A stretch of 64,000 nt of DNA, taken from an uncultured Acidimicrobiaceae bacterium (GTDB lineage Bacteria > Actinomycetota > Acidimicrobiia > Spongiisociales > UBA5794). The notes beneath the pieces are model-generated. The model was not told the DNA's origin and did not search any database. It worked only from the letters and a program-made list of their open reading frames with translations. The position numbers and the translations under genes were made by a program. Shown one piece after another: positions 13,537 to 62,683 of the stretch. The first letter of the stretch is position 1. Every line of letters starts with the position of its first letter. The DNA lies in the NCBI GenBank assembly GCA_947258985.1, contig CAMYKI010000003.1, positions 24,222-88,221 of the forward strand, in the 5' to 3' direction.

Positions 13537-13604
13537 TTTCGGCGGCGAGCCGTGTCGGGATTCCCGGTGAACCGTCGTAGTCGGTTCCCCTACACTCGCC
13601 AGCC

Positions 13605-16600
13605 ATGAGCGTGACCTGTTCTTCGTGCGGCACCCCTGGTCTGGATGGGGCCCGGTTCTGCGCGACCTGCGGTGAGTCGCTGTCTGTTCGGTGTCCGCAG
13701 TGTGCGGGGGAGGTCCCTGAAGGCTCACGTTTTTGTCCGACGTGCGGTAGCCAACTCGATGCCGACCGGGAGCAATCAGACGCCTCCCGTGAGGAGCGCA
13801 AGGTTGTCTCGGTGTTGTTTGCCGACCTGGTGGGTTTCACCGCTCACGCCGCTCAGGCCGACCCGGAAGATGTAAGGGTCCGGCTCACGGTGTATCACCG
13901 CAAGATCCGGGAGGATGTGGAGCGTTTCGGGGGCAGGGTCGAGAAGTTGATGGGCGATGGAGCGTTTGCCGTATTTGGTGCTCCGATCGCTCACGAGGAC
14001 GACCCGGAGCGCGCGGTTCGAGCTGCGCTGCGCGTCCAGCGTTCAGTGGAGGATCTCAACGAGGGTGATGCCGAGCTTGCTCTTTCGGTGCGGATCGCAG
14101 TCACCACCGGCGAGGCAATCGTGCAGTTGCAGGACGACGATCCCGATCGCGAAGGGATAGTCGGTGACGTCGTCAACACGGCCTCGCGGCTCGAGGCGGT
14201 TGCCCCTCCGGGGGGAGTCGTCGTCGACGAACGCACCTATCTCGCCACGCGGGATGCCGTCATCTACACCGACCTCGACCCGGTCCGGGTCAAAGGCAAG
14301 GAAGTTCCGCTGGCGATCTGGCAGCCGCAGGAGGCGCGTAGCCGGTACGGAGTTGCGGTGGAGAGACGTCACGTCGCGCCGTTTGTCGGAAGGGACGCGG
14401 AGTTGGGCGTGCTCGTGGACGCCTTCGAGCGCGTAGTGGCCGACAGCACCGTCCAGTTGGTGACGATCGTCGGCGAGCCCGGCGCAGGAAAGAGCCGTCT
14501 CCTTCACGAATTCTTCGATTCCGTCGACGCTCGGCCCGATCTCGTCTGGTGGCGACAGGGCAGATGCCCGGCCTACGGCGAAGGGATCGCCTTCTGGGCG
14601 TTGAGCGAGATTGTGAAATCGCACGCCGGCATTCTCGAGTCTGACACCGCCGACATCGCTGAGAGAAAGCTGCACACTGCACTTCGGTCCCTCCCGATCG
14701 ACCCTGCAAATGCCGACTGGGTAGAGTCTCGGCTCGCTCGGCTTGCCGGCGTCGGCACAAATGAGGGAGAGGTAGATCAGGCAGATCTGTTCTCTGCCTG
14801 GTTGCGGTTCTTCGAGGCCATGGCGGACCGGAATCCGCTCGTCTTGGTGGTCGAGGACCTGCATTGGGCCGACGGGGCCATGCTGGACTTCATTGAACAC
14901 CTCACGGATTGGGCGGTTTCTTCACCGATACTGGTTGTCACGACGACGCGCCCTGAGTTGTTGGCCGGGCGTGACTCCTGGGGCGGGGGACGAAGGAATT
15001 CCAATACGATCGGACTCGCTCCACTCGACGACGCCGCCGCAGCCGGGTTGCTTTCAGCGCTTCTCGACAGCACCGTGCTCGACGCCGAGGTGCTGGACGC
15101 CATTTTGGGCCGAGCCGGCGGTAACCCGCTGTACGTCACCGAGTTTGTCCGGCTCGCCGGGGACATGGACGCTGTAGCCGACGCCTCCAGGATTGCCGCG
15201 ATGCCTTTGCCCGGTTCGGTACAAGCCCTCGTCGCCGGGAGGCTCGATCAGCTCGAAGCCGACGAGAAGGCGGTTCTGCAGGCAGCATCCGTGGTCGGAA
15301 GGGTGTTTTGGGCGGGGGCGTTGAAGTCGCTGCGACCCACGTTGACGACGGACGACGTGTTGCGCGGACTGATCCGCCGTGAGCTGATCCGGCCGGTACG
15401 GGACACGTCAATGCAGGGCCAGCAGGAATACGTGTTCACCCACAGCGTCATCCGCGATGTTGCGTACGGCCAGATTCCACGTGACGAGCGGGCACATCTA
15501 CATGAATCGGTAGCGGGATGGATCGAGGCGGTCAGCGGTACCCAGGGTTCAGATGCCGGCGAATTGCTCGCCTATCACCTTGGTGAAGCGCTGTCGTTGT
15601 CGAGTTCCCCTGCCGAGGACGTGCGGCTGCGCGCCTACCGGGCCCACATGCAGGCCGGGGACCGCGCTCGTGGGCTGAATCCGACGCTCGGTGCCGATTA
15701 CTACCGTAGGGCGGTCGAATACGCCGCTGCCGGACCGGACCGAGCGCATGCGCTGCTCGAATATGGTGACACGATTCGCCTTACCGAGCCGGATCGGGTC
15801 CGGGCGCTGCTCGATGAGGCGCTCACCCTCTTCCGGGAGGCTGGTGACGCCGAGGGCGAAGCACTGACGTTCAGCTTCCTCGCGGGCCTGTTGTGGTGGC
15901 GGGGGGACACTGCGGAGGCGTATGCCCACAGCAAGAGAGCCGTGGAAATCGTCGAAGATCTCCCGGCTTCCACCGCCAAAGCGCGGGTTCTGGTGACCCG
16001 GGCCAGCGGCCTATACCTCCGCGGTGATGCCGCGGCGGCGCTGGAGGTCTCTGCGATCGCCGCCGACGTTGTCGCCGAGGCCGGCTCGGCGGCGGATCAA
16101 GTCCAATTCCTGTACACCCGCGGTGGCGCGCTTGTGGAGCTGGGTGACGAGACGGGCCTCGATGACCTACAGGCCGCGGCGGATATGGCGTTGGATCGGA
16201 ATATGACCCAGCCGGCCGTCACCGCGCTCAACAATCTCGCCACGGTCGCGGCGACTGCCAGGAGCACCGACGAGGCGCTGGCAGCCATCGACAAGGGTAT
16301 CGCCCTCTGCGAGGAACGAGGCGCGGTAGCGGGCACCATTTGGGCGAGTTTCACCAAGTGCGAGATCCTCGTCCCGGCCGGTAGATGGGATGAGGTACTC
16401 GAACTCGCCGACTACGTAGCCGAGCGCGACGCCGCATTGGGCGGCAGCCAGGCCGCAACAGGCGCAGCCTCACTCAAGGCGATCGTGCTGTTCTACCGGG
16501 GCCAACGGGCGGAAGCCCGCCGTCTCCACGCCACCGTGCTCAAATCAGCTCGCGAGATCGGGGATCAACAGGTGCTGTCCCCGGTGCTGGCATTCGAGGC

Positions 16601-17084
16601 GCTCATGGCCGCCGACAGCGGTGAATGCTCCGCGGCAATCGACCTCTGCGAGCAATACCACACAAGCACGGTCGACAACCCGGGCATGCGGTCGTACAAC
16701 CTGGCAGCGGCAACTGAAGCTCTCTGGGCATGTGACGAAAAGAATTTGCTGCTGAGGCTCGCGCAGTCGACCCGCGCCGTCGGTGCGCTCGGCGAGGTTC
16801 AAGTGGCTCGTGCTCGGGGGCATGCGGCCGCGGTAAATGGCGACTGTCGGGCCGCCGCCGACCACTTCGAACAGGCGATCGAGCGGGCCGAAGAAGCCGG
16901 TCGGTACCTCGACGGTACGCTGGCCCGTCTGGAGCGGGCGCGAGCTCTTGATGCCGCGGCCACCAGGTCTGAGATACCCCGCCTCATCGGTGAGGCTCGC
17001 GAGAGAGCCGAGCGGATGGGGGCAGCAAAGCTACTTGACCGGCTCGACGGCTTTAAAGCTACCGGCACGAGTTCCGGAGGATGA
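13605..17084 (+). CDS. multidomain signalling protein: double zinc-ribbon, class III adenylate cyclase domain, AAA/STAND NTPase and TPR-like C-terminus
   Basis: N-terminal CxxC...CxxC twice. Cyclase homology domain with metal-binding Asp (FADLVGFT, KLMGDG), adenine-specifying Lys (VEKLMGDG) and Asp (GIVGDVVNTASRLE), and transition-state Asn/Arg. Walker A GEPGAGKS. Long helical repeat-like C-terminal half. Confidence 0.8.
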   Translation: MSVTCSSCGTPGLDGARFCATCGESLSVRCPQCAGEVPEGSRFCPTCGSQLDADREQSDASREERKVVSVLFADLVGFTAHAAQADPEDVRVRLTVYHRKIREDVERFGGRVEKLMGDGAFAVFGAPIAHEDDPERAVRAALRVQRSVEDLNEGDAELALSVRIAVTTGEAIVQLQDDDPDREGIVGDVVNTASRLEAVAPPGGVVVDERTYLATRDAVIYTDLDPVRVKGKEVPLAIWQPQEARSRYGVAVERRHVAPFVGRDAELGVLVDAFERVVADSTVQLVTIVGEPGAGKSRLLHEFFDSVDARPDLVWWRQGRCPAYGEGIAFWALSEIVKSHAGILESDTADIAERKLHTALRSLPIDPANADWVESRLARLAGVGTNEGEVDQADLFSAWLRFFEAMADRNPLVLVVEDLHWADGAMLDFIEHLTDWAVSSPILVVTTTRPELLAGRDSWGGGRRNSNTIGLAPLDDAAAAGLLSALLDSTVLDAEVLDAILGRAGGNPLYVTEFVRLAGDMDAVADASRIAAMPLPGSVQALVAGRLDQLEADEKAVLQAASVVGRVFWAGALKSLRPTLTTDDVLRGLIRRELIRPVRDTSMQGQQEYVFTHSVIRDVAYGQIPRDERAHLHESVAGWIEAVSGTQGSDAGELLAYHLGEALSLSSSPAEDVRLRAYRAHMQAGDRARGLNPTLGADYYRRAVEYAAAGPDRAHALLEYGDTIRLTEPDRVRALLDEALTLFREAGDAEGEALTFSFLAGLLWWRGDTAEAYAHSKRAVEIVEDLPASTAKARVLVTRASGLYLRGDAAAALEVSAIAADVVAEAGSAADQVQFLYTRGGALVELGDETGLDDLQAAADMALDRNMTQPAVTALNNLATVAATARSTDEALAAIDKGIALCEERGAVAGTIWASFTKCEILVPAGRWDEVLELADYVAERDAALGGSQAATGAASLKAIVLFYRGQRAEARRLHATVLKSAREIGDQQVLSPVLAFEALMAADSGECSAAIDLCEQYHTSTVDNPGMRSYNLAAATEALWACDEKNLLLRLAQSTRAVGALGEVQVARARGHAAAVNGDCRAAADHFEQAIERAEEAGRYLDGTLARLERARALDAAATRSEIPRLIGEARERAERMGAAKLLDRLDGFKATGTSSGG

Positions 17085-33871: not shown

Positions 33872-34720
33872 TTAGCCGTTGGGCGTGCCCCAGAACTTGA
33901 TCTCAGCTAGCGCCAACTCTTCGAACGCCGGTTGATCACCGATCGCCGATGACGGGAAGTTGCTCAGCACCTCGATGGTGAGCGTCGTTGTGTCGATGCT
34001 GGCGATGTCAATCCGCTGCGGACCTCCGGCGAGATCCTTCAACGTGTTGCGATTCTCCACACCGGGCAGATCGTCGACGGTGATCTTGTAGCCCTGAATC
34101 CGATAGTTCCGCAGGAAGCGATCTTGCTCGGCGATGTTGTAGACCTCGATGTAGCGGATGCTCACCGGTTGGGCGAAACGGAATTCCAGCACAAGTGGCG
34201 ACGTCGCCTGGTTCACCTGCCACTCGGAGTCGAGGTCATCGTCGATGAGGTTGGCTGTACCAAAACCGTCCGACAGTTGTGGCCCGCTGACCTGGGTCGG
34301 GGTGATCTGGGTGGTGTCGGCGATCGTTGTCGTGGTTGTTTCGACGGTCGTTGTGGTCTCTGCGGCTTCGTCGCCGCCACGGAAGACGTTCACGAGAAGG
34401 GCGACGAGAGCCACGATGAGCACGGCCGCGGCGAGGACGCTCAGAGCCCTTCCTCCCGGCGTTGAACGCACCATTGGCGCCGGTGCTACGGGCAGCGGTT
34501 CCTTCGTGAGGCGGGCCCCGCACTGTTCGCAATGCCGGTTGTAGGAGGGGTTGTACGCACCGCACGAGGGACAGGGAACCTGTTCGACAGGAGCTGCTGG
34601 AGGTTCCTCCGCTTCCGCCTCGGGGGCGGGTGGGGGCGGCTCGGTTCCCGGTGGCGGCGGTCCGTCCTCGAGTTCGAACGGCTCGAACAGATCGTCAAAT
34701 GGGTCCTTGTCTTTCGCCAC
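33872..34720 (-). CDS. membrane protein with N-terminal zinc-ribbon, single TM and C-terminal discoidin (F5/8 type C)-like domain
   Basis: CPSCGAYNPSYNRHCEQCG zinc ribbon, a Pro-rich acidic N-terminus, a TM helix (LSVLAAAVLIVALVALLV), a Thr-rich linker, and a C-terminal roughly 150-aa galactose-binding-like domain. GTG at 34720 with GGAGAC Shine-Dalgarno. The ORF track extends further to an unlikely upstream ATG. Confidence 0.55.
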   Translation of the reverse strand: MAKDKDPFDDLFEPFELEDGPPPPGTEPPPPAPEAEAEEPPAAPVEQVPCPSCGAYNPSYNRHCEQCGARLTKEPLPVAPAPMVRSTPGGRALSVLAAAVLIVALVALLVNVFRGGDEAAETTTTVETTTTTIADTTQITPTQVSGPQLSDGFGTANLIDDDLDSEWQVNQATSPLVLEFRFAQPVSIRYIEVYNIAEQDRFLRNYRIQGYKITVDDLPGVENRNTLKDLAGGPQRIDIASIDTTTLTIEVLSNFPSSAIGDQPAFEELALAEIKFWGTPNG

Positions 34721-34939
34721 GTCAGGTCTCCGTCGTTCAGTCCGCCCAAGGGCTATTGTGCCACGGATGGTTGTGATTAGCGCGTTACGTGAGACTGAAG
34801 CCTGGTCGGCGGCAAGTGTGGTGCTCGGATTGCTGCTGCTTGCGCTCCTCATAGGGTTCATCGTGGTGCGAGTGCGTCGCTTCCTCCGGGACCCCTGAGC
34901 CCTTCAGAATCTGTCGTACCCGGGCCATAGGCTGCCGGC

Positions 34940-37474: not shown

Positions 37475-38206
37475 GTGACGAACAAGAAGACCACAGCGAA
37501 GACCGCCACGAAGAAGGCACCGGCCAAAAAGGCACCGGCCAAGAAGGCTGCGGCCAAAAAGGCTCCGGCCAAGAAGGCTGCGGCCAAAAAGACTGCGGCG
37601 GCGAAGAAGGCTCCGGCCAAGAAGGCTCCGGCCAAAAAGACTGCGGCGGCGAAGAAGGCTCCGGCAGCCAAGGCTGCACCCCGCCGAGCCAAAAAGGTGC
37701 AGAGCCCGTTTTCGGTTGGCGACTACGTCGTCTATCCGCATCACGGAGCCGCAACAATTATCAAGCGCGAGCGGATCGACTTCGACGGCGAGCGGCAAGA
37801 GTATTTCGTACTCGAGATTGCCACCGATCAGCTCACTGTGCGGGTCCCGGTCGGCAAGGCCGTTGATCTCGGCGTACGTCCGGTGATTTCGCAAAACAAG
37901 GCCCGGCAGGTGTTCCGAACGTTCAAAGAAGAGCCTCAGGAAGCCGGCAAGAACTGGAGCCGCTGGTACAAGCTCCTCACCGAGAAGATCAACAGTGGCG
38001 ACATCTTCCAGGTAGCCGAAGTGGTTCGCGACCTCACCTATGCGCAGCAGGTGAAGGGGATCTCACCGGCGCTGAAGAGGATGTTGGCCAAGGCTCGGCT
38101 AATCATCATCTCAGAACTCCGTTTCGCGCTTAACCTGGACGAAGAGGAAGCGGTGAAGAGACTCGATAGGGCTCTTCCCAAAGTCGAAATGCCGGAGGAA
38201 GTGTGA
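37475..38206 (+). CDS. carD: CarD/CdnL family RNA-polymerase-binding regulator with N-terminal Lys/Ala-rich histone-H1-like extension
   Basis: The C-terminal roughly 160 aa are a CarD_CdnL_TRCF domain ([27 protein letters not shown]...). The N-terminal about 80 aa are [10 protein letters not shown] repeats. GTG start. Confidence 0.8.
37500..37690. repeat. tandem 15/45-bp repeats encoding the (P/A)AKKA motif inside carD
   Basis: Repeated gccaagaaggctccggccaaaaag(g/a)ctgcggc units are visible in the DNA. Likely to vary in length. Confidence 0.6.
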
Positions 38207-39376: not shown

Positions 39377-39985
39377 ATGTCAGATCAGAAGCAGCGCTTA
39401 GAGGCACGGGCCATGCGGCTCGAGTACACAACGATTGCGTGGAACGCCGTCGAGATGATCATCTCGATCGGCCTTGGTATTGCCGCTCGATCGCTGGCAT
39501 TGGTGGCTTTTGGCCTCGATACCATGATCGAGTTGTTCGCTTCGGGAGTCGTCGTTTGGCATCTGCGCCACCCGGGTCGTGACAGCGACCACGTAACGGC
39601 CAGGGCTCTGCGACTGGTTGCGGTGGCATTTGCGGTGCTTGCCGTGGTTGTCGGCACCGGAGCCATCTGGGCTCTTGCCACCAGCTCCGCCCCGGACGAG
39701 TCCCCCTGGGGCATCGCATATCTGGCCGTCACGGTGGCGGTGATGCTCTCCCTTGGCCTGGCCAAGAGGGCGACCGGCAAGAAACTCGACAGTGAGCCTC
39801 TCACTGCAGAGGCGCGCATGTCGGTCCTCGATGCTGCCCTTGCGCTGGGTGTGTTGATTGGCCTGGGTGCGAATGTGTTGTTCGGATGGTGGTGGGCCGA
39901 TCCAGTGGCAGCACTGCTTGTTGCCGTTGCTGCGCTCAACGAAGCTCGAGAGAACCTGGAGGAGGCTCGAGAACTGGCGGAGTGA
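39377..39985 (+). CDS. cation-diffusion-facilitator-like membrane protein (TM domain only, no cytoplasmic C-terminal domain)
   Basis: About 5-6 predicted TM helices with the pattern IAWNAVEMIISIGLG...ALVAFGLDTMIE reminiscent of the CDF TMD. Only 202 aa. Confidence 0.45.
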   Translation: MSDQKQRLEARAMRLEYTTIAWNAVEMIISIGLGIAARSLALVAFGLDTMIELFASGVVVWHLRHPGRDSDHVTARALRLVAVAFAVLAVVVGTGAIWALATSSAPDESPWGIAYLAVTVAVMLSLGLAKRATGKKLDSEPLTAEARMSVLDAALALGVLIGLGANVLFGWWWADPVAALLVAVAALNEARENLEEARELAE

Positions 39986-40080
39986 CCGTACGGCTTCACC
40001 GGCTAGCGCGCGGATATTCCCCGCTAAACCTATCGCGCTCAACTGTCGATTTAGGATCTGATCGCCATCGAGGAGTCCGC

Positions 40081-41469
40081 ATGCGTTCCAAGATCCTTCG
40101 TACATTGACCGTCGGCCTGGCCATGTCTCTAGTCATGGGGGTAGCCCTGGCTGCGCTTCCACCGGGAGGGACCTTTACCGACGACAACGGCAACGTCCAT
40201 GAAGGCAACATCGAGGCAATCGCCGCTGAAGGCATCACCCGGGGCTGCAACCCACCCGTCAACGACAACTATTGCCCGTCGACCTCGGTCACTCGCGGTC
40301 AGATGGCCGCTTTTCTCACCAGGGCCCTCGGCCTTTCGACGCCCACCGCAGACTTCTTCACCGACGACGACGGCACGACCTTCGAAGCGGACATCAATGC
40401 CGTGGCCGCCGCCGGTATCACCAGGGGCTGCAATCCACCCGACAACGACGAGTTCTGCCCGAGCCAGGCAGTAACCCGGGAGCAGATGGCGGCTTTCTTG
40501 CGCCGTGCGTTCAACTATCCGGCCACCGCCACCGACTACTTCACCGACGATGGCCTCTCCGTGTTTCAGACAGACATCAACGCCATTGCCGCCGCCGGCA
40601 TCACGATGGGATGCAACCCGCCTGCCAATGACAGTTACTGTCCGACTGCCGTCGTGAAGCGCGATCAGATGGCGTCGTTCTTCGCGCGGGCGCTGGACCT
40701 CGAGCCGATTACGCCACCAACGCCGACCACCATCGCCCCCGGCGACAGCATCATCATCGATCACACCACAGCCGACATCGATGCCATTCCGCAGACGTGG
40801 CTCAACGCCGCTGCAGCCAACGTGATCTGGGCATACGGGTCGACGTCTCACGGGACTCAACTGTGGGCCGGTGCCGAGGATCTCGACAACTGGCTTTCCT
40901 TGCCCTTCGAGAAGCAATACCGGACCGTACCGACCCAGACGAGCCCTGCGCAGCTGCGCATGGGTTACGACAGCGGCTGGTCCTGGAGTGCATCGGTCTA
41001 TCTCTCCCGGGCCCGGTCAATCCTGGCCGACGTGCCCCAAGCGACCGCCTTCTCCTGGTCGTGGTGCGGTGAGATGTCCTCGGCCGGCACCGATGTCGAT
41101 GCATACCTGAGCGCAATGACGACGCTGGAGGCCGAATACCCGAACGTGACATTCGTTTACATGACAGGCCATCTCGACGGCGGGGGAGCGGCCCTGGAGG
41201 CAAACAACGACAAGGTACGTCAGCACGTGCTCGACAACGGCGGGGTGCTATTCGACTTCGCCGACATCGAGCAGTACGACCCCAACGGCGTCGAGTACCC
41301 GACCGCCTCGGATGCCTGCGAGTGGTGCAGCACGTGGTGCGCAGCTCATCCAGGCGACTGTGCGGATCTTGGTGGAAGCTGTGCCCACAGCCACCCCTTC
41401 AACTGCCGTCGCAAGGGGATGGCGTTCTGGTGGTTGTCGGCCCGTCTCGCCGGCTGGTCCGGGAGTTAG
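40081..41469 (+). CDS. secreted protein with three tandem SLH-like repeats (each with a conserved Cys pair) and an uncharacterised Cys-rich C-terminal domain
   Basis: Signal peptide MRSKILRTLTVGLAMSLVMGVALAA. Three repeats of about 52 aa, pattern F(T/F)DD.G..HE..I.A.AA.GIT.GCNPP.ND.(Y/F)CP...VTR.QMAAFL.RA(L/F). A roughly 270-aa C-terminal domain ends CEWCSTWCAAHPGDCADLGGSCAHSHPFNC. The real ATG is at 40081. The ORF track's upstream extension is rejected. Confidence 0.55.
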   Translation: MRSKILRTLTVGLAMSLVMGVALAALPPGGTFTDDNGNVHEGNIEAIAAEGITRGCNPPVNDNYCPSTSVTRGQMAAFLTRALGLSTPTADFFTDDDGTTFEADINAVAAAGITRGCNPPDNDEFCPSQAVTREQMAAFLRRAFNYPATATDYFTDDGLSVFQTDINAIAAAGITMGCNPPANDSYCPTAVVKRDQMASFFARALDLEPITPPTPTTIAPGDSIIIDHTTADIDAIPQTWLNAAAANVIWAYGSTSHGTQLWAGAEDLDNWLSLPFEKQYRTVPTQTSPAQLRMGYDSGWSWSASVYLSRARSILADVPQATAFSWSWCGEMSSAGTDVDAYLSAMTTLEAEYPNVTFVYMTGHLDGGGAALEANNDKVRQHVLDNGGVLFDFADIEQYDPNGVEYPTASDACEWCSTWCAAHPGDCADLGGSCAHSHPFNCRRKGMAFWWLSARLAGWSGS

Positions 41470-43756: not shown

Positions 43757-44507
43757 CCTCGAAGGCTTCCACGCGGTCCGGGCGGCGGTCGACGCGGGAC
43801 GCGTTACCGAAATCCTGGTTGAGCATTCGCGAGCGAAGCGGGACGACTACCGCGCTTTGCTCGAGGATGCGGCCGGGCGGGGAGCGCGGATCGACCGGGT
43901 CGACGATGTACGCGATCATGCGCGGTCGGGAGCACCGCAAGGCATCGTCGCCAAAGCGCGTCCCATTCCCTACTCGTCTCTCGATGCCGCCATCGCAGTC
44001 ACTGATCCCGCTGCGCTGCTCGTACTCGATCACCTCGAGGACCCGAGGAATGTGGGAGCTATCGCCCGGTCGATGGTGGCTGCCGGGGTTAAGGCGCTCG
44101 TGATTCCGGAGCGCCGATCTGCCCCGCTCGGACCGACCGCCTTCAAGGCAGCGGTCGGCGCTTTCGAGAAGCTGACGGTGGTACAGACGAAGTCCACCGC
44201 GGATGCGATGCGCCGGTTGCGCAAGGCGGGGGTATGGCTGGTCGGTCTCGATGCCGGCGGGAATCGTTCGCTGTTTGGTTGTGATCTGTTGGACCAACCC
44301 GTCGCCATCGTCGTTGGGGCAGAGGGCAAAGGACTATCACATCTGGCGTCGGAACTGCTCGACGTGACGGTCACGATCCCGATTGACCCGGAAGTCGAAA
44401 GCCTCAACGCATCGGTGGCGGCGTCCCTGGCATTGTTCGAAATCAGCCGCCAACGTGGCGCTACACTCGGCGCGCCTCTGCCCGACGGCAGAGACCCGCT
44501 GGCGTAG
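43731..44507 (+). CDS. rlmB: 23S rRNA (guanosine-2'-O)-methyltransferase, RlmB/TrmH (SpoU) family
   Basis: SpoU_sub_bind N-domain plus SPOUT motifs (LVLDHLEDPRNVGAIARS, IVVGAEGKGLS, IPIDPEVESLNASVAASLALFE). Start overlaps the cysS 3' end. Confidence 0.8.
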   Translation: MASAGIGDSLEGFHAVRAAVDAGRVTEILVEHSRAKRDDYRALLEDAAGRGARIDRVDDVRDHARSGAPQGIVAKARPIPYSSLDAAIAVTDPAALLVLDHLEDPRNVGAIARSMVAAGVKALVIPERRSAPLGPTAFKAAVGAFEKLTVVQTKSTADAMRRLRKAGVWLVGLDAGGNRSLFGCDLLDQPVAIVVGAEGKGLSHLASELLDVTVTIPIDPEVESLNASVAASLALFEISRQRGATLGAPLPDGRDPLA

Positions 44508-44574
44508 CTCAGTCCGGCAGAGCAGCTGATTTGTAATCAGCAGGTCATGGGTTCGAATCCCTTCGCCAGCTCCA
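44498..44574 (+). tRNA. tRNA-Thr (anticodon TGT)
   Basis: Acceptor GCTGGCG/CGCCAGC. D arm GCTC...GAGC. Anticodon stem GCTGA/TCAGC with loop TTTGTAA. T loop TTCGAAT. Discriminator T, then CCA. The 5' end overlaps the rlmB stop by 10 nt. Confidence 0.8.
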
Positions 44575-46807: not shown

Positions 46808-47956
46808 TCAAACCCGCTGTCGGCGGCCAGCACGGTCGAGTCGCTTCGCAAAGCTATCGAGGCGATCATGCAATCGATCAGCCCGCCGGGAGTGAAGCCT
46901 GCGGACCGACACGGTGACTTCTGTGTTGGGGTCCCCAGCGATGCGCCATCCGTCCTCATGGACCAGCCGGTGGTGGAACGGGCACAGGGAGATCAGGTTG
47001 TCGAGATCTGTGGGACCACCGTGCGCCCAGTGGATGAGATGGTGGAAGTGGACCCATCGGGTGTGGCCGCAGCCCGGGTAGCGACACCCTTGATCGCGCT
47101 TGCGCAGAAGCCGGGCCAGCCATGGAGGGATGGTCCGAGTTGTGCGGCCGACGCCGAGGATGCTGTGTTCGCCGTCCTCGACACTGACCTGGAGACGAGC
47201 GTCGCAGACCAATCGGCGGGCCGTTTCCGCAAGCAATGGCGTGCCATCCTCGTAGGACGCTTCGCCTTCGTCGTCGGTAAGCACCGAGAGCGGTATGTGA
47301 ACGACGGCAGTGGCCCGATCTGGGTCACGATCGGCGCCCCGATGCTGCGATGCCAGCATGAGCAGTGCATCGAGGCAGCGGGCCTCGAACGATTCGTAGG
47401 TTCCTCCCGGCTGGGCTGGGGCTTGCGAGGCGAGCCGGGTGATCGTCTTTACGAATTCGACACCGTCGCTTGCGACCATCTTGCCGTTGAGCCATAAGAC
47501 CGGGCGGTTCTCATCGAATGACCAGCTGAACTCGCGTGTGCGCTGCACCTGCTGCACATCGTCGAGCGTGGCCTCGCGGGCTCGCTTGGCGAGGGCAGTG
47601 ACGCTCAATGAGGGTGCCTCGGCGGCAAGGTCATCGTCGGTGTCCGGGGTCGCGAACCTGGTGACATTGCGAAGCTGATCCCACGACATTCTCCCCGCCG
47701 CATACGCCGCCCTAATCGCCGGCAACTGCCGAATCTCGCGGGCAATCCGCACCCAATCATTGGCGGTACGTCGGGACAAGCGGTAGCGGGCAACGAGCCA
47801 ACCGGCCATCGATGAGGCGCCGTCGAATGTCCACGCCTCCTCACGGTCCATCCTGGCAACGTCATCAAGCAACTCCAGATGTGCAGCGCACCTGATCGTG
47901 TGCCACCTGTCCATTGCGGTGTATCGATCTGTGTCATGCAGGGGGGCGGTCCCCAT
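46808..47956 (-). CDS. DUF222 domain / HNH endonuclease protein (REP13E12-type)
   Basis: DUF222 core, then an HNH motif (CRYPGCGHTRWVHFHHLIHWAHGGPTDLDNLISLCPFHHRLVHEDGW). Start set to the ATG at 47956 to avoid overlap with the divergent gene at 48100. Confidence 0.75.
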   Translation of the reverse strand: MGTAPLHDTDRYTAMDRWHTIRCAAHLELLDDVARMDREEAWTFDGASSMAGWLVARYRLSRRTANDWVRIAREIRQLPAIRAAYAAGRMSWDQLRNVTRFATPDTDDDLAAEAPSLSVTALAKRAREATLDDVQQVQRTREFSWSFDENRPVLWLNGKMVASDGVEFVKTITRLASQAPAQPGGTYESFEARCLDALLMLASQHRGADRDPDRATAVVHIPLSVLTDDEGEASYEDGTPLLAETARRLVCDARLQVSVEDGEHSILGVGRTTRTIPPWLARLLRKRDQGCRYPGCGHTRWVHFHHLIHWAHGGPTDLDNLISLCPFHHRLVHEDGWRIAGDPNTEVTVSVRRLHSRRADRLHDRLDSFAKRLDRAGRRQRV

Positions 47957-48099
47957 GGCGGTCTCCGGGTGATTGCGTCGGTGGGGAAGTATCAACAACG
48001 TATCAACTGGGTGTGACACATTTGCCTCGGGCGGACACGGCGGGTCATGAGCTTCGCAACTCGGCGGCCGTGTCTTCCCGCTAGATTTGCTGATGAGCA

Positions 48100-48918
48100 A
48101 TGGATACTGACGCTACCTCCATCGACGACAGAGGCGCCGAGCCGCATCTCGCCGTGTTCTTCGACCTCGACCGGACGATCATCGAGGGGTCGTCGATATC
48201 CCAGTTCGGAATGGCGGCATGGCGAGCGGGCCTGATCGATCCGAAAAAGATGGGCATGCATTTGATCCGAGGGTTGCTTTTTGACTGGATCGGCGAATCA
48301 GAAGGCGTTGCCGATGAGACCCTCCCCAAGATCCTAAAGACGATAAAGGGCAAGAAGCAGTCCGAGATGATGGAGCTACGGGGCCCGCTTGTGGAACGGA
48401 TGTTCGCTGAGGCAAGACCGGAGACTCTGCGACTACTGGGGCTTCACGCCAAAATGGGACGGGATTGCTATGTCGTTTCGGCCTCGGCCATCGAGATAGT
48501 CGGCGAGCTGGCGGAGAGGCTCGGCTTCGCCGGGGCGATCGCGACCGAGGCTGAGGTCATCGATGGTGTGTACACCGGGCGGCTGGTGCAGCCGTTCCGG
48601 CACGGCGAGGAAAAGGCGCGCGCCATCGCCAGGCTGGCCGAGGAGAAGGACTACGACCTCAGTCTCTCATTCGCATATGGAGACTCATTCCACGATCTCC
48701 CGATGCTGGAACTGGTTGGGATACCCATCGCCGTCAATCCCGACGCCAAGCTCGCCGACGTTGCGTATGAGCGTGGCTGGCCGGTTGTACAGTTTGCGAA
48801 GCCGCATCACGTGATGCTCCGCCGCCTGAAGACGGGAGCTGCGCTTGGTGCTGCCTTTGCGGCGGGTGCCGTGAGCATGAGGATGTTGCGGAGGGGCGCC
48901 GGTCGCTACACCTCGTGA
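48100..48918 (+). CDS. HAD superfamily hydrolase, subfamily IB (phosphoserine-phosphatase-like)
   Basis: DxD motif FFDLDRTIIEGSS, the SASAIEIV motif II region, and the K...GDSFHDLPML motif III/IV. Confidence 0.7.
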   Translation: MDTDATSIDDRGAEPHLAVFFDLDRTIIEGSSISQFGMAAWRAGLIDPKKMGMHLIRGLLFDWIGESEGVADETLPKILKTIKGKKQSEMMELRGPLVERMFAEARPETLRLLGLHAKMGRDCYVVSASAIEIVGELAERLGFAGAIATEAEVIDGVYTGRLVQPFRHGEEKARAIARLAEEKDYDLSLSFAYGDSFHDLPMLELVGIPIAVNPDAKLADVAYERGWPVVQFAKPHHVMLRRLKTGAALGAAFAAGAVSMRMLRRGAGRYTS

Positions 48919-61080: not shown

Positions 61081-61854
61081 TCAGTCGATGTCGAAGAAGG
61101 GCGATTCCTGATCGTCGGCAGGGGGTTCGGTGGTGACTCCAGCCGATGGGACCGGCGGTGGCTCGGGGGCGGATCTTCGCGCCGACTCCGATTGCTTGTC
61201 GCGGCGGATTGCGGCGATCCAAACCACGAGAGCGAATCCGACCGAGACGAGCAGCAGCACGACCAACCGCCACGGGAAGGGTGAAGAGGGATACTCGGTG
61301 TTGGCGAACATATACAGGCTCTGGTCTAGCGGCACCGTCCACAGGAGCCGGCCGTCTTCGAGTACCTGGTCGGCGTTGTGATCTACCGACTCACCGGGGA
61401 GGGAGACGGTGACGGAAGTGGTCAGCGATTCCCCATCGATGGCTGCAGGATCTACGGGGAATTGCGACGGGTCGATTTCTCCGGTGATGTCGAGCGTGGC
61501 CTCAAATGCCGATCCGGCGTCCGTGACTTCCAAGGAGAAGTCGGTGAAGTTGCCGGCGGCCGCGCTTGGGATCTCAGAGGTCTCCGCAAAGGCCACCGTC
61601 GTCGTGTAGATGGTGAGATCGCCCTGGGTGCGGGTGGAGCGTTCCCCGTCGATCCCGAGGTCGAGCGAGGGCAGCACTTCCTCGCTCGGCCCGAAGAACT
61701 GCGTGATCAACTGATCGAGCTCGTCGTCAACGCCAACCTCAACCGACAAGTCGCCACTGCCATCCTCGATGACGTTCAGGAAGAGCTGAACGTCGGCGCG
61801 GCAGCCCGATGCCAGGACGGCAAGCAGTGCGACGAGAAGCGAAAGACGTTTCAT
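61081..61854 (-). CDS. LppM-like lipoprotein with C-terminal TM anchor
   Basis: Signal plus lipobox LASGC. A C-terminal TM (WRLVVLLLVSVGFALVVWIAAI) is followed by a Pro-rich acidic tail. The pattern resembles mycobacterial LppM-family proteins. Confidence 0.5.
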   Translation of the reverse strand: MKRLSLLVALLAVLASGCRADVQLFLNVIEDGSGDLSVEVGVDDELDQLITQFFGPSEEVLPSLDLGIDGERSTRTQGDLTIYTTTVAFAETSEIPSAAAGNFTDFSLEVTDAGSAFEATLDITGEIDPSQFPVDPAAIDGESLTTSVTVSLPGESVDHNADQVLEDGRLLWTVPLDQSLYMFANTEYPSSPFPWRLVVLLLVSVGFALVVWIAAIRRDKQSESARRSAPEPPPVPSAGVTTEPPADDQESPFFDID

Positions 61855-61903
61855 GGATGGTCGCTGACTCTACCAACGGTGCCGGGGCACGTATCCTGAG
61901 CGC

Positions 61904-62683
61904 ATGAACGCCGAGCCTGCCTCGATCGCGGCACAGCTGCACACGGCCATCATCGCCGCCTTCCCGTCCTATGTCCGCGAGAGGCTGCAGCGTTTGGGCG
62001 TCGCTCAGGACGGTGCTCTGGCTGATGCGCTGGCGACGGCGACGAGCCGGCTCGACGCCGAGCTTACCGAAGTCGACGGGGCATCTCTCAGAGAATCGCC
62101 GCTCGAGATCGTGCGCATCGCCACAGAGCCCTTGACCGCCGTCCTCCGGGAGCGGGGGGTTCCTCCCGTGTCGCGAGATGAGCGATCGGCGGAGCTCCAT
62201 CCGGACGACGTCTACGACCTCTATCCGGCGACATCCCGCGATCTGGGCGAGGACGTGTGGCGAATCCACATGCAATGGGGCATCGAGCGGGCACGTCTGG
62301 TCGCAGGTGTTGTCCCGGCATCGCCCGGAAGTGGAGAACCGGTCGCCGTTCCGGCGGCGGCGCTTTTCGGGTTGCCCGAGCCGCTGCGCTCGCAGGTCGC
62401 CGATGCACTGCTCGCCAGGGGCTACCGCCCGCTGCTGTGGCGTAATCCTGCCGCCCTCGAGGCCGGTCTGGCGGGGATGCCCCGTCTTGTGATCGTCGAC
62501 CTCAACCACCCGGGGGCCGACGCTGCGATCCGGCGGTCCGCCGATACGGCCCGGGTTGTCGCCATCGGCAAGGGGATCGATGACTTCGTCGAGGCAGCAA
62601 CGTTGGCTATCGGGGCTGAGGAGGTCGTCGATTCAGACCGGATCCTCGACCGGCTCGGAGCGCTCCTCCCGCGTCTCGTCTGA
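61904..62683 (+). CDS. hypothetical protein
   Basis: 259-aa acidic ORF with coding-like composition and no recognisable motifs. Its 3' end overlaps the convergent EamA gene by about 50 bp. Confidence 0.4.
   Translation: MNAEPASIAAQLHTAIIAAFPSYVRERLQRLGVAQDGALADALATATSRLDAELTEVDGASLRESPLEIVRIATEPLTAVLRERGVPPVSRDERSAELHPDDVYDLYPATSRDLGEDVWRIHMQWGIERARLVAGVVPASPGSGEPVAVPAAALFGLPEPLRSQVADALLARGYRPLLWRNPAALEAGLAGMPRLVIVDLNHPGADAAIRRSADTARVVAIGKGIDDFVEAATLAIGAEEVVDSDRILDRLGALLPRLV

Follow-up and report, generated by a model that had tools for sequence, protein, structure and literature searches.

What protein does the complete 462-codon reading frame between ispF and cysS encode, and what does it say about the surface of the cell that makes it? 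The DNA analysed here, a 64,000-nucleotide stretch hereafter called the window, comes from a member of the Acidimicrobiia. These bacteria, almost none of which are cultured, are plentiful in soils, sediments and sea water; to our knowledge their cell envelope is essentially unknown. Taken as a whole, the target protein is best read as a Sec-exported enzyme of an Acidimicrobiia-type actinobacterium, held non-covalently to the wall by an S-layer homology (SLH) anchor that is joined to an SGNH-like hydrolase. The probability of this reading is put at roughly 0.6.

The layout of the gene is given in Table 1. Its start residue is identical in orthologues, and 15 full-length orthologue clusters (71-100% identity) start and end as the target does. 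The mature N-terminus, LPPGGTF.DD, is conserved in homologues right after the signal peptide, and inspection of translated residues 1-24 revealed no lipobox Cys. Module boundaries fall where homologues of other architectures begin or end. The joining of an SLH anchor to an enzyme is a classical design, and here both modules are common and uncharacterised. For example, xylanases and pullulanases of thermophilic Firmicutes have SLH domains as a wall anchor fused to the enzyme. The endolysin LysBT1 also carries an SLH domain (PMC12285257). As in all of these, an SLH trimer with a catalytic domain would keep the enzyme at the surface; the target differs in its uncharacterised partner domain and in the cysteine-loop variant of its anchor.

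Table 1. Features of the target gene and its upstream neighbour, in window coordinates.
Feature	Positions	Strand	Description
Cation-efflux (CDF) gene	39377..39985	+	Upstream, 95 bp from target; Pfam PF01545
Shine-Dalgarno-like GAGGAG	40070..40075	+	5 nt before ATG; read from sequence
Target ORF, complete	40081..41469	+	462 aa + stop; signal peptide, 3 x SLH, Pro/Thr linker, SGNH-like domain
Sec-type signal peptide	40081..40152	+	Residues 1-24; MRSK + hydrophobic core + ALA|A; called by eye
SLH repeat 1	40171..40353	+	Residues 31-91; GITRG with Gly55, Cys56...Cys65 loop, TRGQ with Arg72
SLH repeat 2	40354..40536	+	Residues 92-152; GITRG with Gly116, Cys117...Cys126 loop, TREQ with Arg133
SLH repeat 3	40537..40716	+	Residues 153-212; GITMG with Gly177, Cys178...Cys187 loop, KRDQ with Arg194
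Pro/Thr-rich linker	40699..40746	+	Residues 207-222; LEPITPPTPTTIAPGD; joins SLH module and C-terminal domain
SGNH-like alpha/beta domain	40747..41466	+	Residues 223-462; invariant H228, S256, H257, Q260, C329, H364, D392, D395, E397
Cys-rich helical sub-region	41311..41466	+	Residues 411-462; C413, C416, C420, C427, C434, H436, C442, K445, WWLSARLAGW helix

By sequence and by predicted fold, the N-terminal repeats are true SLH domains. They are 61, 61 and 60 aa long, with pairwise identities of 59, 57 and 53%. The protein reaches 29.7 bits (E 6.5e-07) with the Pfam SLH model PF00395 (PROSITE PS51272), whose gathering score is 20.8; this bears out the three SLH-like repeats of the original prediction. 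Two of the three repeats were scored individually, the best stretch being residues 93-137 in repeat 2. Given this score, and given that 202 of the 206 repeats taken from 66 further proteins have both loop cysteines, the repeat pattern is not due to chance. The repeat is present in no further ORF of the window. A phmmer comparison gave a weak match to Sap (E 0.021). The AlphaFold model of the module (pLDDT 91.3) has two helices per repeat, and all 15 of its Foldseek matches in the PDB at E<=1e-3 are SLH trimers, with TM up to 0.83. These include Sap (3PYW, TM 0.79/0.83) and SpaA complexes with 4,6-Pyr-ManNAc.

The target shares with Sap (3PYW, 6BT4) and SpaA (6CWC and related) three repeats in tandem, each some 60 aa long, a predicted three-prong spindle (TM 0.7-0.83) and a terminal position of the SLH module in a secreted protein, beside a functional domain. 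Each repeat also keeps the Gly of the GIIxG-type and the Arg of the TRAE-type motif. These correspond to SLH-Gly29 (Gly55, Gly116, Gly177) and SLH-Arg43 (Arg72, Arg133, Arg194), both invariant in 40 homologues; their ligand-binding roles have been described (PMC6081394). In contrast to the Firmicutes that harbor Sap and SpaA, the host is one of the Acidimicrobiia. With just 18-23% identity to those proteins, the repeats lie at the limit of what the Pfam model detects, and several orthologues have no precomputed SLH match. SLH-Trp13 is missing, residues 1-213 containing no Trp at all; in the phmmer alignment the Trp of Sap pairs with a Thr of the target. The final Glu of the TRAE-type motif is Gln in every repeat. 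Finally, unlike Sap and SpaA, the target repeats have a C-x8-C pair flanking an insertion of 3-4 residues, which lies between the GIxxG glycine and (F/Y)xP.

This cysteine loop reads GCNPP(V/D/A)ND(N/E/S)(Y/F)CP in each repeat, with pairs 56/65, 117/126 and 178/187. In reading frames from 61 related loci, both cysteines are present in 224 repeats and both are missing from 22; none of the intact repeats carries just one of them. The loop is shorter in the Cys-less repeats of these loci, by 3-4 residues in Acidimicrobiia sister repeats, so that the pair is indeed an insertion with respect to canonical SLH, as had been claimed. In Chloroflexia and Nitriliruptorales versions the loop varies in length (C-x5 to C-x8-C) and the Cys pair is kept. 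The first cysteine of the pair immediately follows the glycine predicted to contact the ligand. The pair would bracket an inserted loop of eight residues (NPPxNDxY) and most likely clamp it through an intra-repeat disulfide.

The anchor itself would work much as in Sap and SpaA. Once the signal peptide is removed, the three repeats are predicted to fold into one pseudo-threefold trimer. Through it the protein would be attached to a secondary cell-wall polymer that is linked to peptidoglycan and most likely pyruvylated. The Arg of (T/K)R(G/E/D)Q and the Gly of GIT(R/M)G would line the binding grooves. Pyruvyl transferases (PF04230) lie within 10 kb of cysteine-loop SLH loci in 6 of 61 cases. 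In four of the six, all from Acidimicrobiia MAGs, the pyruvyl transferase is fused to a GT2 domain and its gene ends a short way upstream of the cysteine-loop SLH gene; within NCBIfam, the pyruvyl-transferase model that fits these fusions best is CsaB (TIGR03609). One of the fusions (L020) and a 77% orthologue (L003) of the target come from the same MAG.

Two other accounts of the anchor have to be considered. One takes the cysteines for free, metal-binding or redox-sensing thiols. The loop blocks are modeled at pLDDT 79-85, below the rest of the SLH module, a point in favor of this account, but the strict both-or-neither pattern fits an intra-repeat disulfide, the protein is predicted to be extracytoplasmic, and the Cys count is even in each repeat. 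A loop of varying length with the pair retained is also easier to reconcile with a clamp than with metal coordination of fixed geometry. In Actinobacteria exported cysteines are known to be oxidised by MdbA/VKOR (PMC9974433), which likewise speaks for disulfides; free or metal-bound thiols are quite improbable. The other account accepts the clamped loop and sees it, with the Trp13 and Glu-to-Gln changes, as the mark of a changed specificity. The ligand may differ because Trp13 is missing and the TRAE Glu is always Gln (TRGQ, TREQ or KRDQ). In SpaA, Trp13 is one of three ligand-contacting residues, and in the target the Cys loop is inserted immediately after another contact, Gly29 (role: PMC6081394). 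The window also contains no csaB or PF04230-like ORF, and pyruvyl transferases are near few of the related loci. Against this stand the invariance, in all three repeats, of Gly29 and Arg43, both of which contact the pyruvate ketal, the finding that a TRAQ variant of SpaA is functional (PMC6081394), and the CsaB-like genes that adjoin cysteine-loop SLH genes in four MAGs of Acidimicrobiia, including one with an orthologue. A changed specificity is thus a rather unlikely alternative to attachment through a pyruvylated polymer.

The cysteine-loop SLH module occurs in thousands of proteins, some of which NCBI names 'S-layer homology domain-containing protein', with several paralogues per genome. 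As an N-terminal module it is also fused to VanY, amidase, trypsin, GSDH, CapA, beta-helix and other domains. This suggests that many secreted enzymes of Acidimicrobiia share one anchor, the cysteine-clamped SLH trimer. The original prediction had presented a disulfide-stabilised SLH as an uncharacterised variant. A literature search, covering a limited set of papers, returned nothing relevant on a cysteine-containing or Acidimicrobiia SLH variant. The variant is not rare.

The C-terminal 249 aa contain 13 Trp, 23 Ser and 7 Cys, the last comprising C329 and the cluster C413-x2-C416-x3-C420...C427...C434...C442. As had been foreseen, no recognised family accounts for this region: Pfam, NCBIfam and a PDB profile search gave no curated family match. 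Some 20 polar residues are invariant in a set of 297 sequences (37-100% identity), and in the predicted fold (AlphaFold, pLDDT 92.5) they are placed after the beta-strands. C416 and C427 co-vary, with both present in 265 sequences, neither in 18 and one alone in 14. C329 is replaced by Ser in three sequences, two of which keep the remaining six cysteines. The domain is found fused to CBM96, CBM60, PA14, dockerin, CE2_N, a beta-helix, a T9SS tail or canonical SLH. Such extracellular or carbohydrate-related partners favor the carbohydrate-active role proposed at the outset. Around three stand-alone homologues (P0188, P0197, P0077) no recurrent partner genes were found.

The predicted C-terminal domain has a three-layer alpha/beta/alpha fold with a five-stranded parallel sheet. 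It is enzyme-like and most resembles sugar esterases. Its best fold matches are metal-independent SGNH enzymes, with Foldseek TM values of just 0.35-0.54. Unlike SGNH/GDSL esterases, it is not detected by any sequence model: no GDSL/SGNH match appeared in Pfam or NCBIfam even at E<=10, nor in any of 79 family members, single-sequence and profile searches of the PDB gave nothing significant, and hhalign assigned a probability of 0.3% to the pairing with E. coli TesA. The residues that define SGNH enzymes are also absent from their places. After strand 1, where the nucleophilic Ser of block I, GDS(L), is expected, is D227-H228-T229; the third of these positions is T, N, R, H or A over the 297 sequences, as mapped by secondary-structure order rather than by structural alignment. 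Block III (GxND, with the oxyanion Asn) is replaced by W-C329-G-E/Q after strand 3, and block V (DxxH, with the catalytic Asp and His) by D392-F-A-D395-I-E397, which has no His, after strand 5. Compared with the carbohydrate esterases CE2 (2wao/2waa) and CE3 (2vpt) and the peptidoglycan O-acetyl esterases/transferases Ape1 (4k3u), PatB (7tjb) and OatA (5ufy), the target thus lacks all three signatures and uses another invariant set (H, S-H, C, H, D/D/E). Two further additions are an inserted beta-hairpin and a helical, Cys-rich cap some 50 aa long.

A rearranged active site of this kind is not foreign to the fold. In the SGNH-like acetyltransferases AlgX and AlgJ the triad is sequence-permuted (Asp-His...Ser), with His/Asp following strand 1 and the Ser coming from a later motif. 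That arrangement is reminiscent of D227-H228 followed by S256 in the target. The Pro/Thr linker would present a domain with an SGNH-like flavodoxin fold whose invariant polar residues lie at the C-terminal strand ends: H228 after strand 1, S256-H257 after strand 2, C329 after strand 3, H364 after strand 4 and D392/D395/E397 after strand 5. It would be a hydrolase and would most probably act as an O-acyl esterase on carbohydrates or the cell wall, with a non-canonical nucleophile, either S256 or the apparently unpaired C329, assisted by His and acidic residues. The catalytic domain would lie beneath a cap that three disulfides staple. On Cys-nucleophile SGNH enzymes a literature search within a limited set of papers found nothing relevant.

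The wealth of invariant His, Asp, Glu and Cys could instead describe a metal-dependent hydrolase or a metal-binding domain, in which H228, H257, C329, H364, D392, D395, E397 and the C-x2-C-x3-C...C.HSH segment coordinate Zn or another metal in place of a Ser/Cys-His centre and disulfides. An HTSH motif, with His at 254, in 123 of the 297 sequences, a C.HSH motif with the invariant H436 and the odd total of invariant Cys would all suit such a site. However, the target and 165 of the 297 sequences have Ser at position 254, which is then no obligatory ligand, the signal peptide marks the protein as exported, C416 and C427 vary as a pair, and the closest folds are those of enzymes that need no metal. 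Metal coordination is on balance a rather unlikely explanation. The domain might also be non-catalytic and serve for binding or structure, on a degenerate SGNH scaffold like the OSK domain of Oskar. This is improbable, since the invariant polar residues follow the beta-strands, the usual active-site place of alpha/beta enzymes, since the domain is the sole enzyme-like module in many stand-alone secreted proteins of about 300 aa, and since in two proteins it follows CE2_N, where CE2 esterases have their catalytic domain. An esterase centre of Ser or Cys with His remains the preferred reading.

The neighbourhood of the gene contributes little to this picture. Three genes (CDF, target and GDPD) lie between ispF and cysS in the source genome, and the arrangement is identical on an independent Logan contig. 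An envelope role had been argued from this insertion beside GDPD, and one might regard the target and GDPD as an inserted cassette for envelope turnover. The argument does not hold, and the cassette is hardly credible: GDPD is on the opposite strand and convergent with the target across a 51-bp gap, so that the two cannot be co-transcribed, and five orthologue loci elsewhere (72-80% identity) have no ispF, GDPD or cysS nearby. Strand orientation and the lack of kept synteny in orthologues led to rejection of a GDPD/teichoic-acid cassette. The GC3 of the target (0.78) is similar to that of its neighbours, which counts against an inserted cassette; recent horizontal insertion was rejected on this value and on the flat GC profile. 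The only neighbour that stays near orthologues is the CDF gene, 0.9-7.5 kb upstream by tblastn (L002-L006), and it is not claimed as part of the target's function.

Neither the SLH variant nor the C-terminal domain overturns current understanding. A broader proposition joins the two: that the C-terminal domain founds a new extracellular glycan-active family and that the cysteine-loop SLH is the standard display anchor of Acidimicrobiia. Jointly these are possible but somewhat doubtful. If true, an SGNH scaffold would have been re-equipped with an S256-H257 dyad and/or a free Cys329, together with H228/H364 and acidic residues. It would represent a new carbohydrate-esterase or transacylase family of >2,000 sequence clusters from Actinomycetota, Chloroflexota, Zixibacteria and others. 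The anchor would be coupled to a lineage-specific GT2-CsaB fusion enzyme, and a disulfide beside the ligand-contacting glycine could tune anchoring or make it redox-sensitive. The C-terminal domain, as a large family that databases do not cover, with a confident predicted structure and clear invariant residues, is a good candidate for a new CAZyme family. The shared cysteine-clamped SLH and the CsaB-like genes near it provide a testable model for the display of surface proteins in Acidimicrobiia.

In the target protein an SLH-type anchor, whose lineage-typical loop is probably clamped by cysteines, precedes an enzyme-like domain that is uncharacterised; the original prediction was right in this main reading. 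The architecture is classical. The N-terminus (MRSK, then a hydrophobic stretch, then ALA|A) looks by eye like a Sec signal peptide without a lipobox. Start and end residues are shared by the target and 15 full-length orthologue clusters (71-100% identity). Each repeat carries GCNPPxNDx(Y/F)CP, with Cys pairs at 56/65, 117/126 and 178/187. The 249 residues after the linker include 13 Trp and 7 Cys, among them C413-x2-C416-x3-C420...C427...C434...C442. Re-reading of the sequence found the ORF, repeats, Cys motif and Cys-rich C-terminal region to have been described accurately. BLAST mapping of homologues shows that two independent modules make up the protein.

That the repeats are SLH domains, as had been proposed, is borne out by both profile and fold. 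Pfam SLH (PF00395) gave 29.7 bits, the gathering score being 20.8. Modelled by AlphaFold from 40 homologues, residues 27-212 show two helices per repeat (mean pLDDT 91.3), and all 15 Foldseek matches in the PDB at E≤1e-3 are SLH trimers. They are Bacillus anthracis Sap (3PYW; TM 0.79/0.83, E 3e-10) and P. alvei SpaA, the latter both with and without pyruvylated ligand. Three ligand-contacting positions, SLH-Trp13, -Gly29 and -Arg43, were defined by Blackler et al. (PMC6081394). Compared with SpaA and Sap, the target keeps Gly29 (GIIxG motif; GITRG, GITRG and GITMG) and Arg43 (TRAE motif; TRGQ, TREQ and KRDQ) in all three repeats, and both are invariant in homologues, but Trp13 is absent and the whole N-terminal module has no Trp. 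The SpaA variant TRAQ is functional (PMC6081394). The precomputed Pfam SLH match on the target is flagged 'faint', and several of its orthologues (database proteins P0003, P0004, P0006, P0007, P0009 and P0010), at 77-80% identity, have none. The Pfam model therefore under-detects the cysteine-loop subfamily, and the SLH domains of Actinomycetota have probably been undercounted.

In the Sap alignment, the first Cys immediately follows SLH-Gly29, the second replaces the residue preceding the conserved Pro, and four additional residues lie between them; the Sap repeat has neither the Cys nor the extension. Of 206 repeats taken from 66 database proteins, 202 carry both Cys and the other 4 have alignment gaps at these positions. 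An ORF scan of 61 related loci gave 224 repeats with both Cys, 22 with neither (counted only where both alignment columns were occupied) and 0 with one; apparent single-Cys repeats were fragments from contig ends or frameshifts. A disulfide clamp would be expected to give such a strict both-or-neither pattern when the protein is exported, and we infer from it that each pair would form a disulfide clamping the loop. PMC9974433 describes exported-protein oxidoreductases in Actinobacteria. The 22 Cys-less repeats read T...S/E/G, as in GTGPDTFSP, with a loop shorter by 3-4 residues. Acidimicrobiia also have C-terminal SLH trimers of the same subfamily (FxDDxxxxxExxIN...VTRGQMAAF) without either Cys or the insertion (GTGPDTFSP), which resemble a natural 'before or after' stage of that loop. 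In Chloroflexia and Nitriliruptorales the pair is kept with shorter loops (GCTATSFCP, GCAPDRYCP); the Nitriliruptorales trimer mixes one canonical repeat with two Cys-bearing ones.

A search with the full-length target retrieved at least 7,845 proteins at E≤1e-3. Among the matches listed, the cysteine-loop trimer is fused to domains such as VanY, Amidase_2, trypsin, GSDH, CapA, metallo-beta-lactamase, Excalibur, beta-helix and LRR. Acidimicrobiia MAGs account for the overwhelming majority of its occurrences in species-representative genomes, with multiple copies per genome (e.g., 3 loci in MFD05684.bin.2.275). These varied partners and this distribution thus suggest a general surface-display anchor of the class. 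Some members are already labelled 'S-layer homology domain-containing protein' by NCBI; no paper on the variant was found in the literature searched.

No pyruvyl transferase was detected among 30 window ORFs by Pfam scans, nor by a pyruvyl-transferase profile against six-frame ORFs of the 64-kb window. With E. coli WcaK as seed, 6 of the 61 related loci proved to have PF04230 genes no more than 10 kb from a cysteine-loop SLH gene. Four encode a GT2 + PS_pyruv_trans fusion ending just upstream of a gene for cysteine-loop SLH plus a GSDH-like (PQQ sugar dehydrogenase-type) domain; the best NCBIfam pyruvyl-transferase model for the fusion is CsaB (78 bits). The L012 copy appears frameshifted. The stand-alone enzymes of L050 and L056 score 152 and 189 bits on CsaB TIGR03609 (cut-off 213) and lie ~4-6 kb from the Cys-pair SLH gene. 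Locus L020 shares one MAG with L003, which holds a 77%-identical full-length target orthologue. This supports the classical pairing of SLH with pyruvylated polymer, which this genome may share.

Coordinates of the target, its neighbours and related loci (L, related genomic locus)
Feature	Location	Strand	Remarks
Target ORF	window 40081-41469	+	intact, 462 codons
Ribosome-binding site GAGGAG	5 nt upstream of target ORF	+	sequence reading
Three head-to-tail repeats	target residues 31-212		61, 61, 60 aa; pairwise identity 53-59%
Pro/Thr linker	target residues 207-222		after repeats
Cation-efflux (CDF) gene	window 39377-39985	+	near target orthologues in L002-L006
CarD homologue	window 37475-37700	+
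tRNA-Thr (TGT)	window 44498-44574	+
DUF222 + HNH endonuclease gene	window 46811-48112	-	adjoins AI-2E transporter gene
ORFs of 260-340 aa	window 33875-34903, 61084-61869, 61742-62632	-	coding-like GC3; no Pfam match at E≤1e-5
Stop-to-stop open frame	window 13581-17084	+	1,167 codons
GT2 + PS_pyruv_trans (PF04230) fusion, ~880 aa	L021:7249-9888, L020:7113-9791, L015:7323-9974, L012:6373-8803	+	four different Acidimicrobiia MAGs
Cys-less C-terminal SLH trimers	L042:8738-10555, L053:4965-6809, L054:239-2062, L057:3838-5664, L047:1343-3688, L052:8138-10537		Acidimicrobiia
Short-loop Cys-pair SLH	L050:8951-10531		Chloroflexia MAG
Short-loop Cys-pair SLH	L056:8636-10513		Nitriliruptorales MAG

The gene order is radA, disA, carD, ispD, ispF, CDF transporter, target, glycerophosphodiester phosphodiesterase (GDPD), cysS, rlmB, tRNA-Thr; GDPD is convergent with the target on the opposite strand (gap 51 bp), and an identical Logan contig carries the same arrangement. 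The ispF/GDPD/cysS setting described earlier is present here, but none of the three is retained near the orthologues in five loci, where only the CDF gene persists (67-86% identity), 0.9-7.5 kb upstream with variable inserted genes between. Target GC3 (0.78) is like that of neighbouring genes. Context therefore says little about function. Nearby, at its N-terminus, the CarD homologue has ~70 aa rich in Lys and Ala (AKKAPAKKA repeats), a tail that stands ahead of its CarD_TRCF_RID and CarD_C domains and weakly resembles histone-H1-like HC2 (31.8 bits, under the cut-off of 40). The tRNA starts 10 nt ahead of the stop that closes the SpoU/RlmB-type methyltransferase ORF at 44507. DUF222 + HNH genes are often multi-copy and mobile in Actinobacteria.

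The C-terminal domain had been said to match no recognised family, and searches of Pfam, NCBIfam and PDB sequences agree, neither a limit as loose as E≤10 nor a profile of 50 sequences giving a match. Its homologues, mostly stand-alone secreted proteins of ~300 aa, form 2,717 clusters at 90% identity and 2,010 at 50% identity with E≤1e-3 (567 with E≤1e-30); hosts include Actinomycetota, Anaerolineae/Chloroflexia, Zixibacteria, Acidobacteria and Pseudomonadota MAGs. Across 297 sequences that are 37-100% identical to the target, the residues (ORF numbering) H228, S256, H257, Q260, W328, C329, T362, G363, H364, N376, R380, D392, D395, E397, C413, C420, C434, H436, C442 and K445 are invariant, with C329 replaced by Ser in 3 sequences, 2 of which retain the other six Cys. 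Loss of C416 goes with loss of C427: both are present in 265 sequences, neither in 18 and one only in 14. Together these patterns suggest a C-terminal cap with three disulfides and a free Cys329.

In the 79 multi-domain representatives, every fusion partner is of an extracellular or carbohydrate-related kind: DUF11 (11), beta-helix (4), T9SS sorting tail (4), CBM96 (3), disaggregatase repeat (3), dockerin (2), canonical SLH (2) and CE2_N (2), with PA14, CBM60 and Ig_Rha78A_N. In CE2 esterases, CE2_N normally sits ahead of an SGNH catalytic domain. When SGNH positions are mapped by order of secondary-structure elements, the signature is missing: G-D-S after strand 1 is D-H-(T/N/R/H/A), G-x-N-D after strand 3 is W-C-G-(E/Q), and DFADIE, without His, follows strand 5; hhalign against E. 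coli TesA gave 0.3% probability. The best reading is a candidate extracellular hydrolase, similar to glycan or cell-wall O-acyl esterases, whose catalytic centre would be non-canonical, although the mechanism may be metal-dependent or the role non-catalytic. Both the anchor variant and this candidate hydrolase family are widespread and visible computationally.
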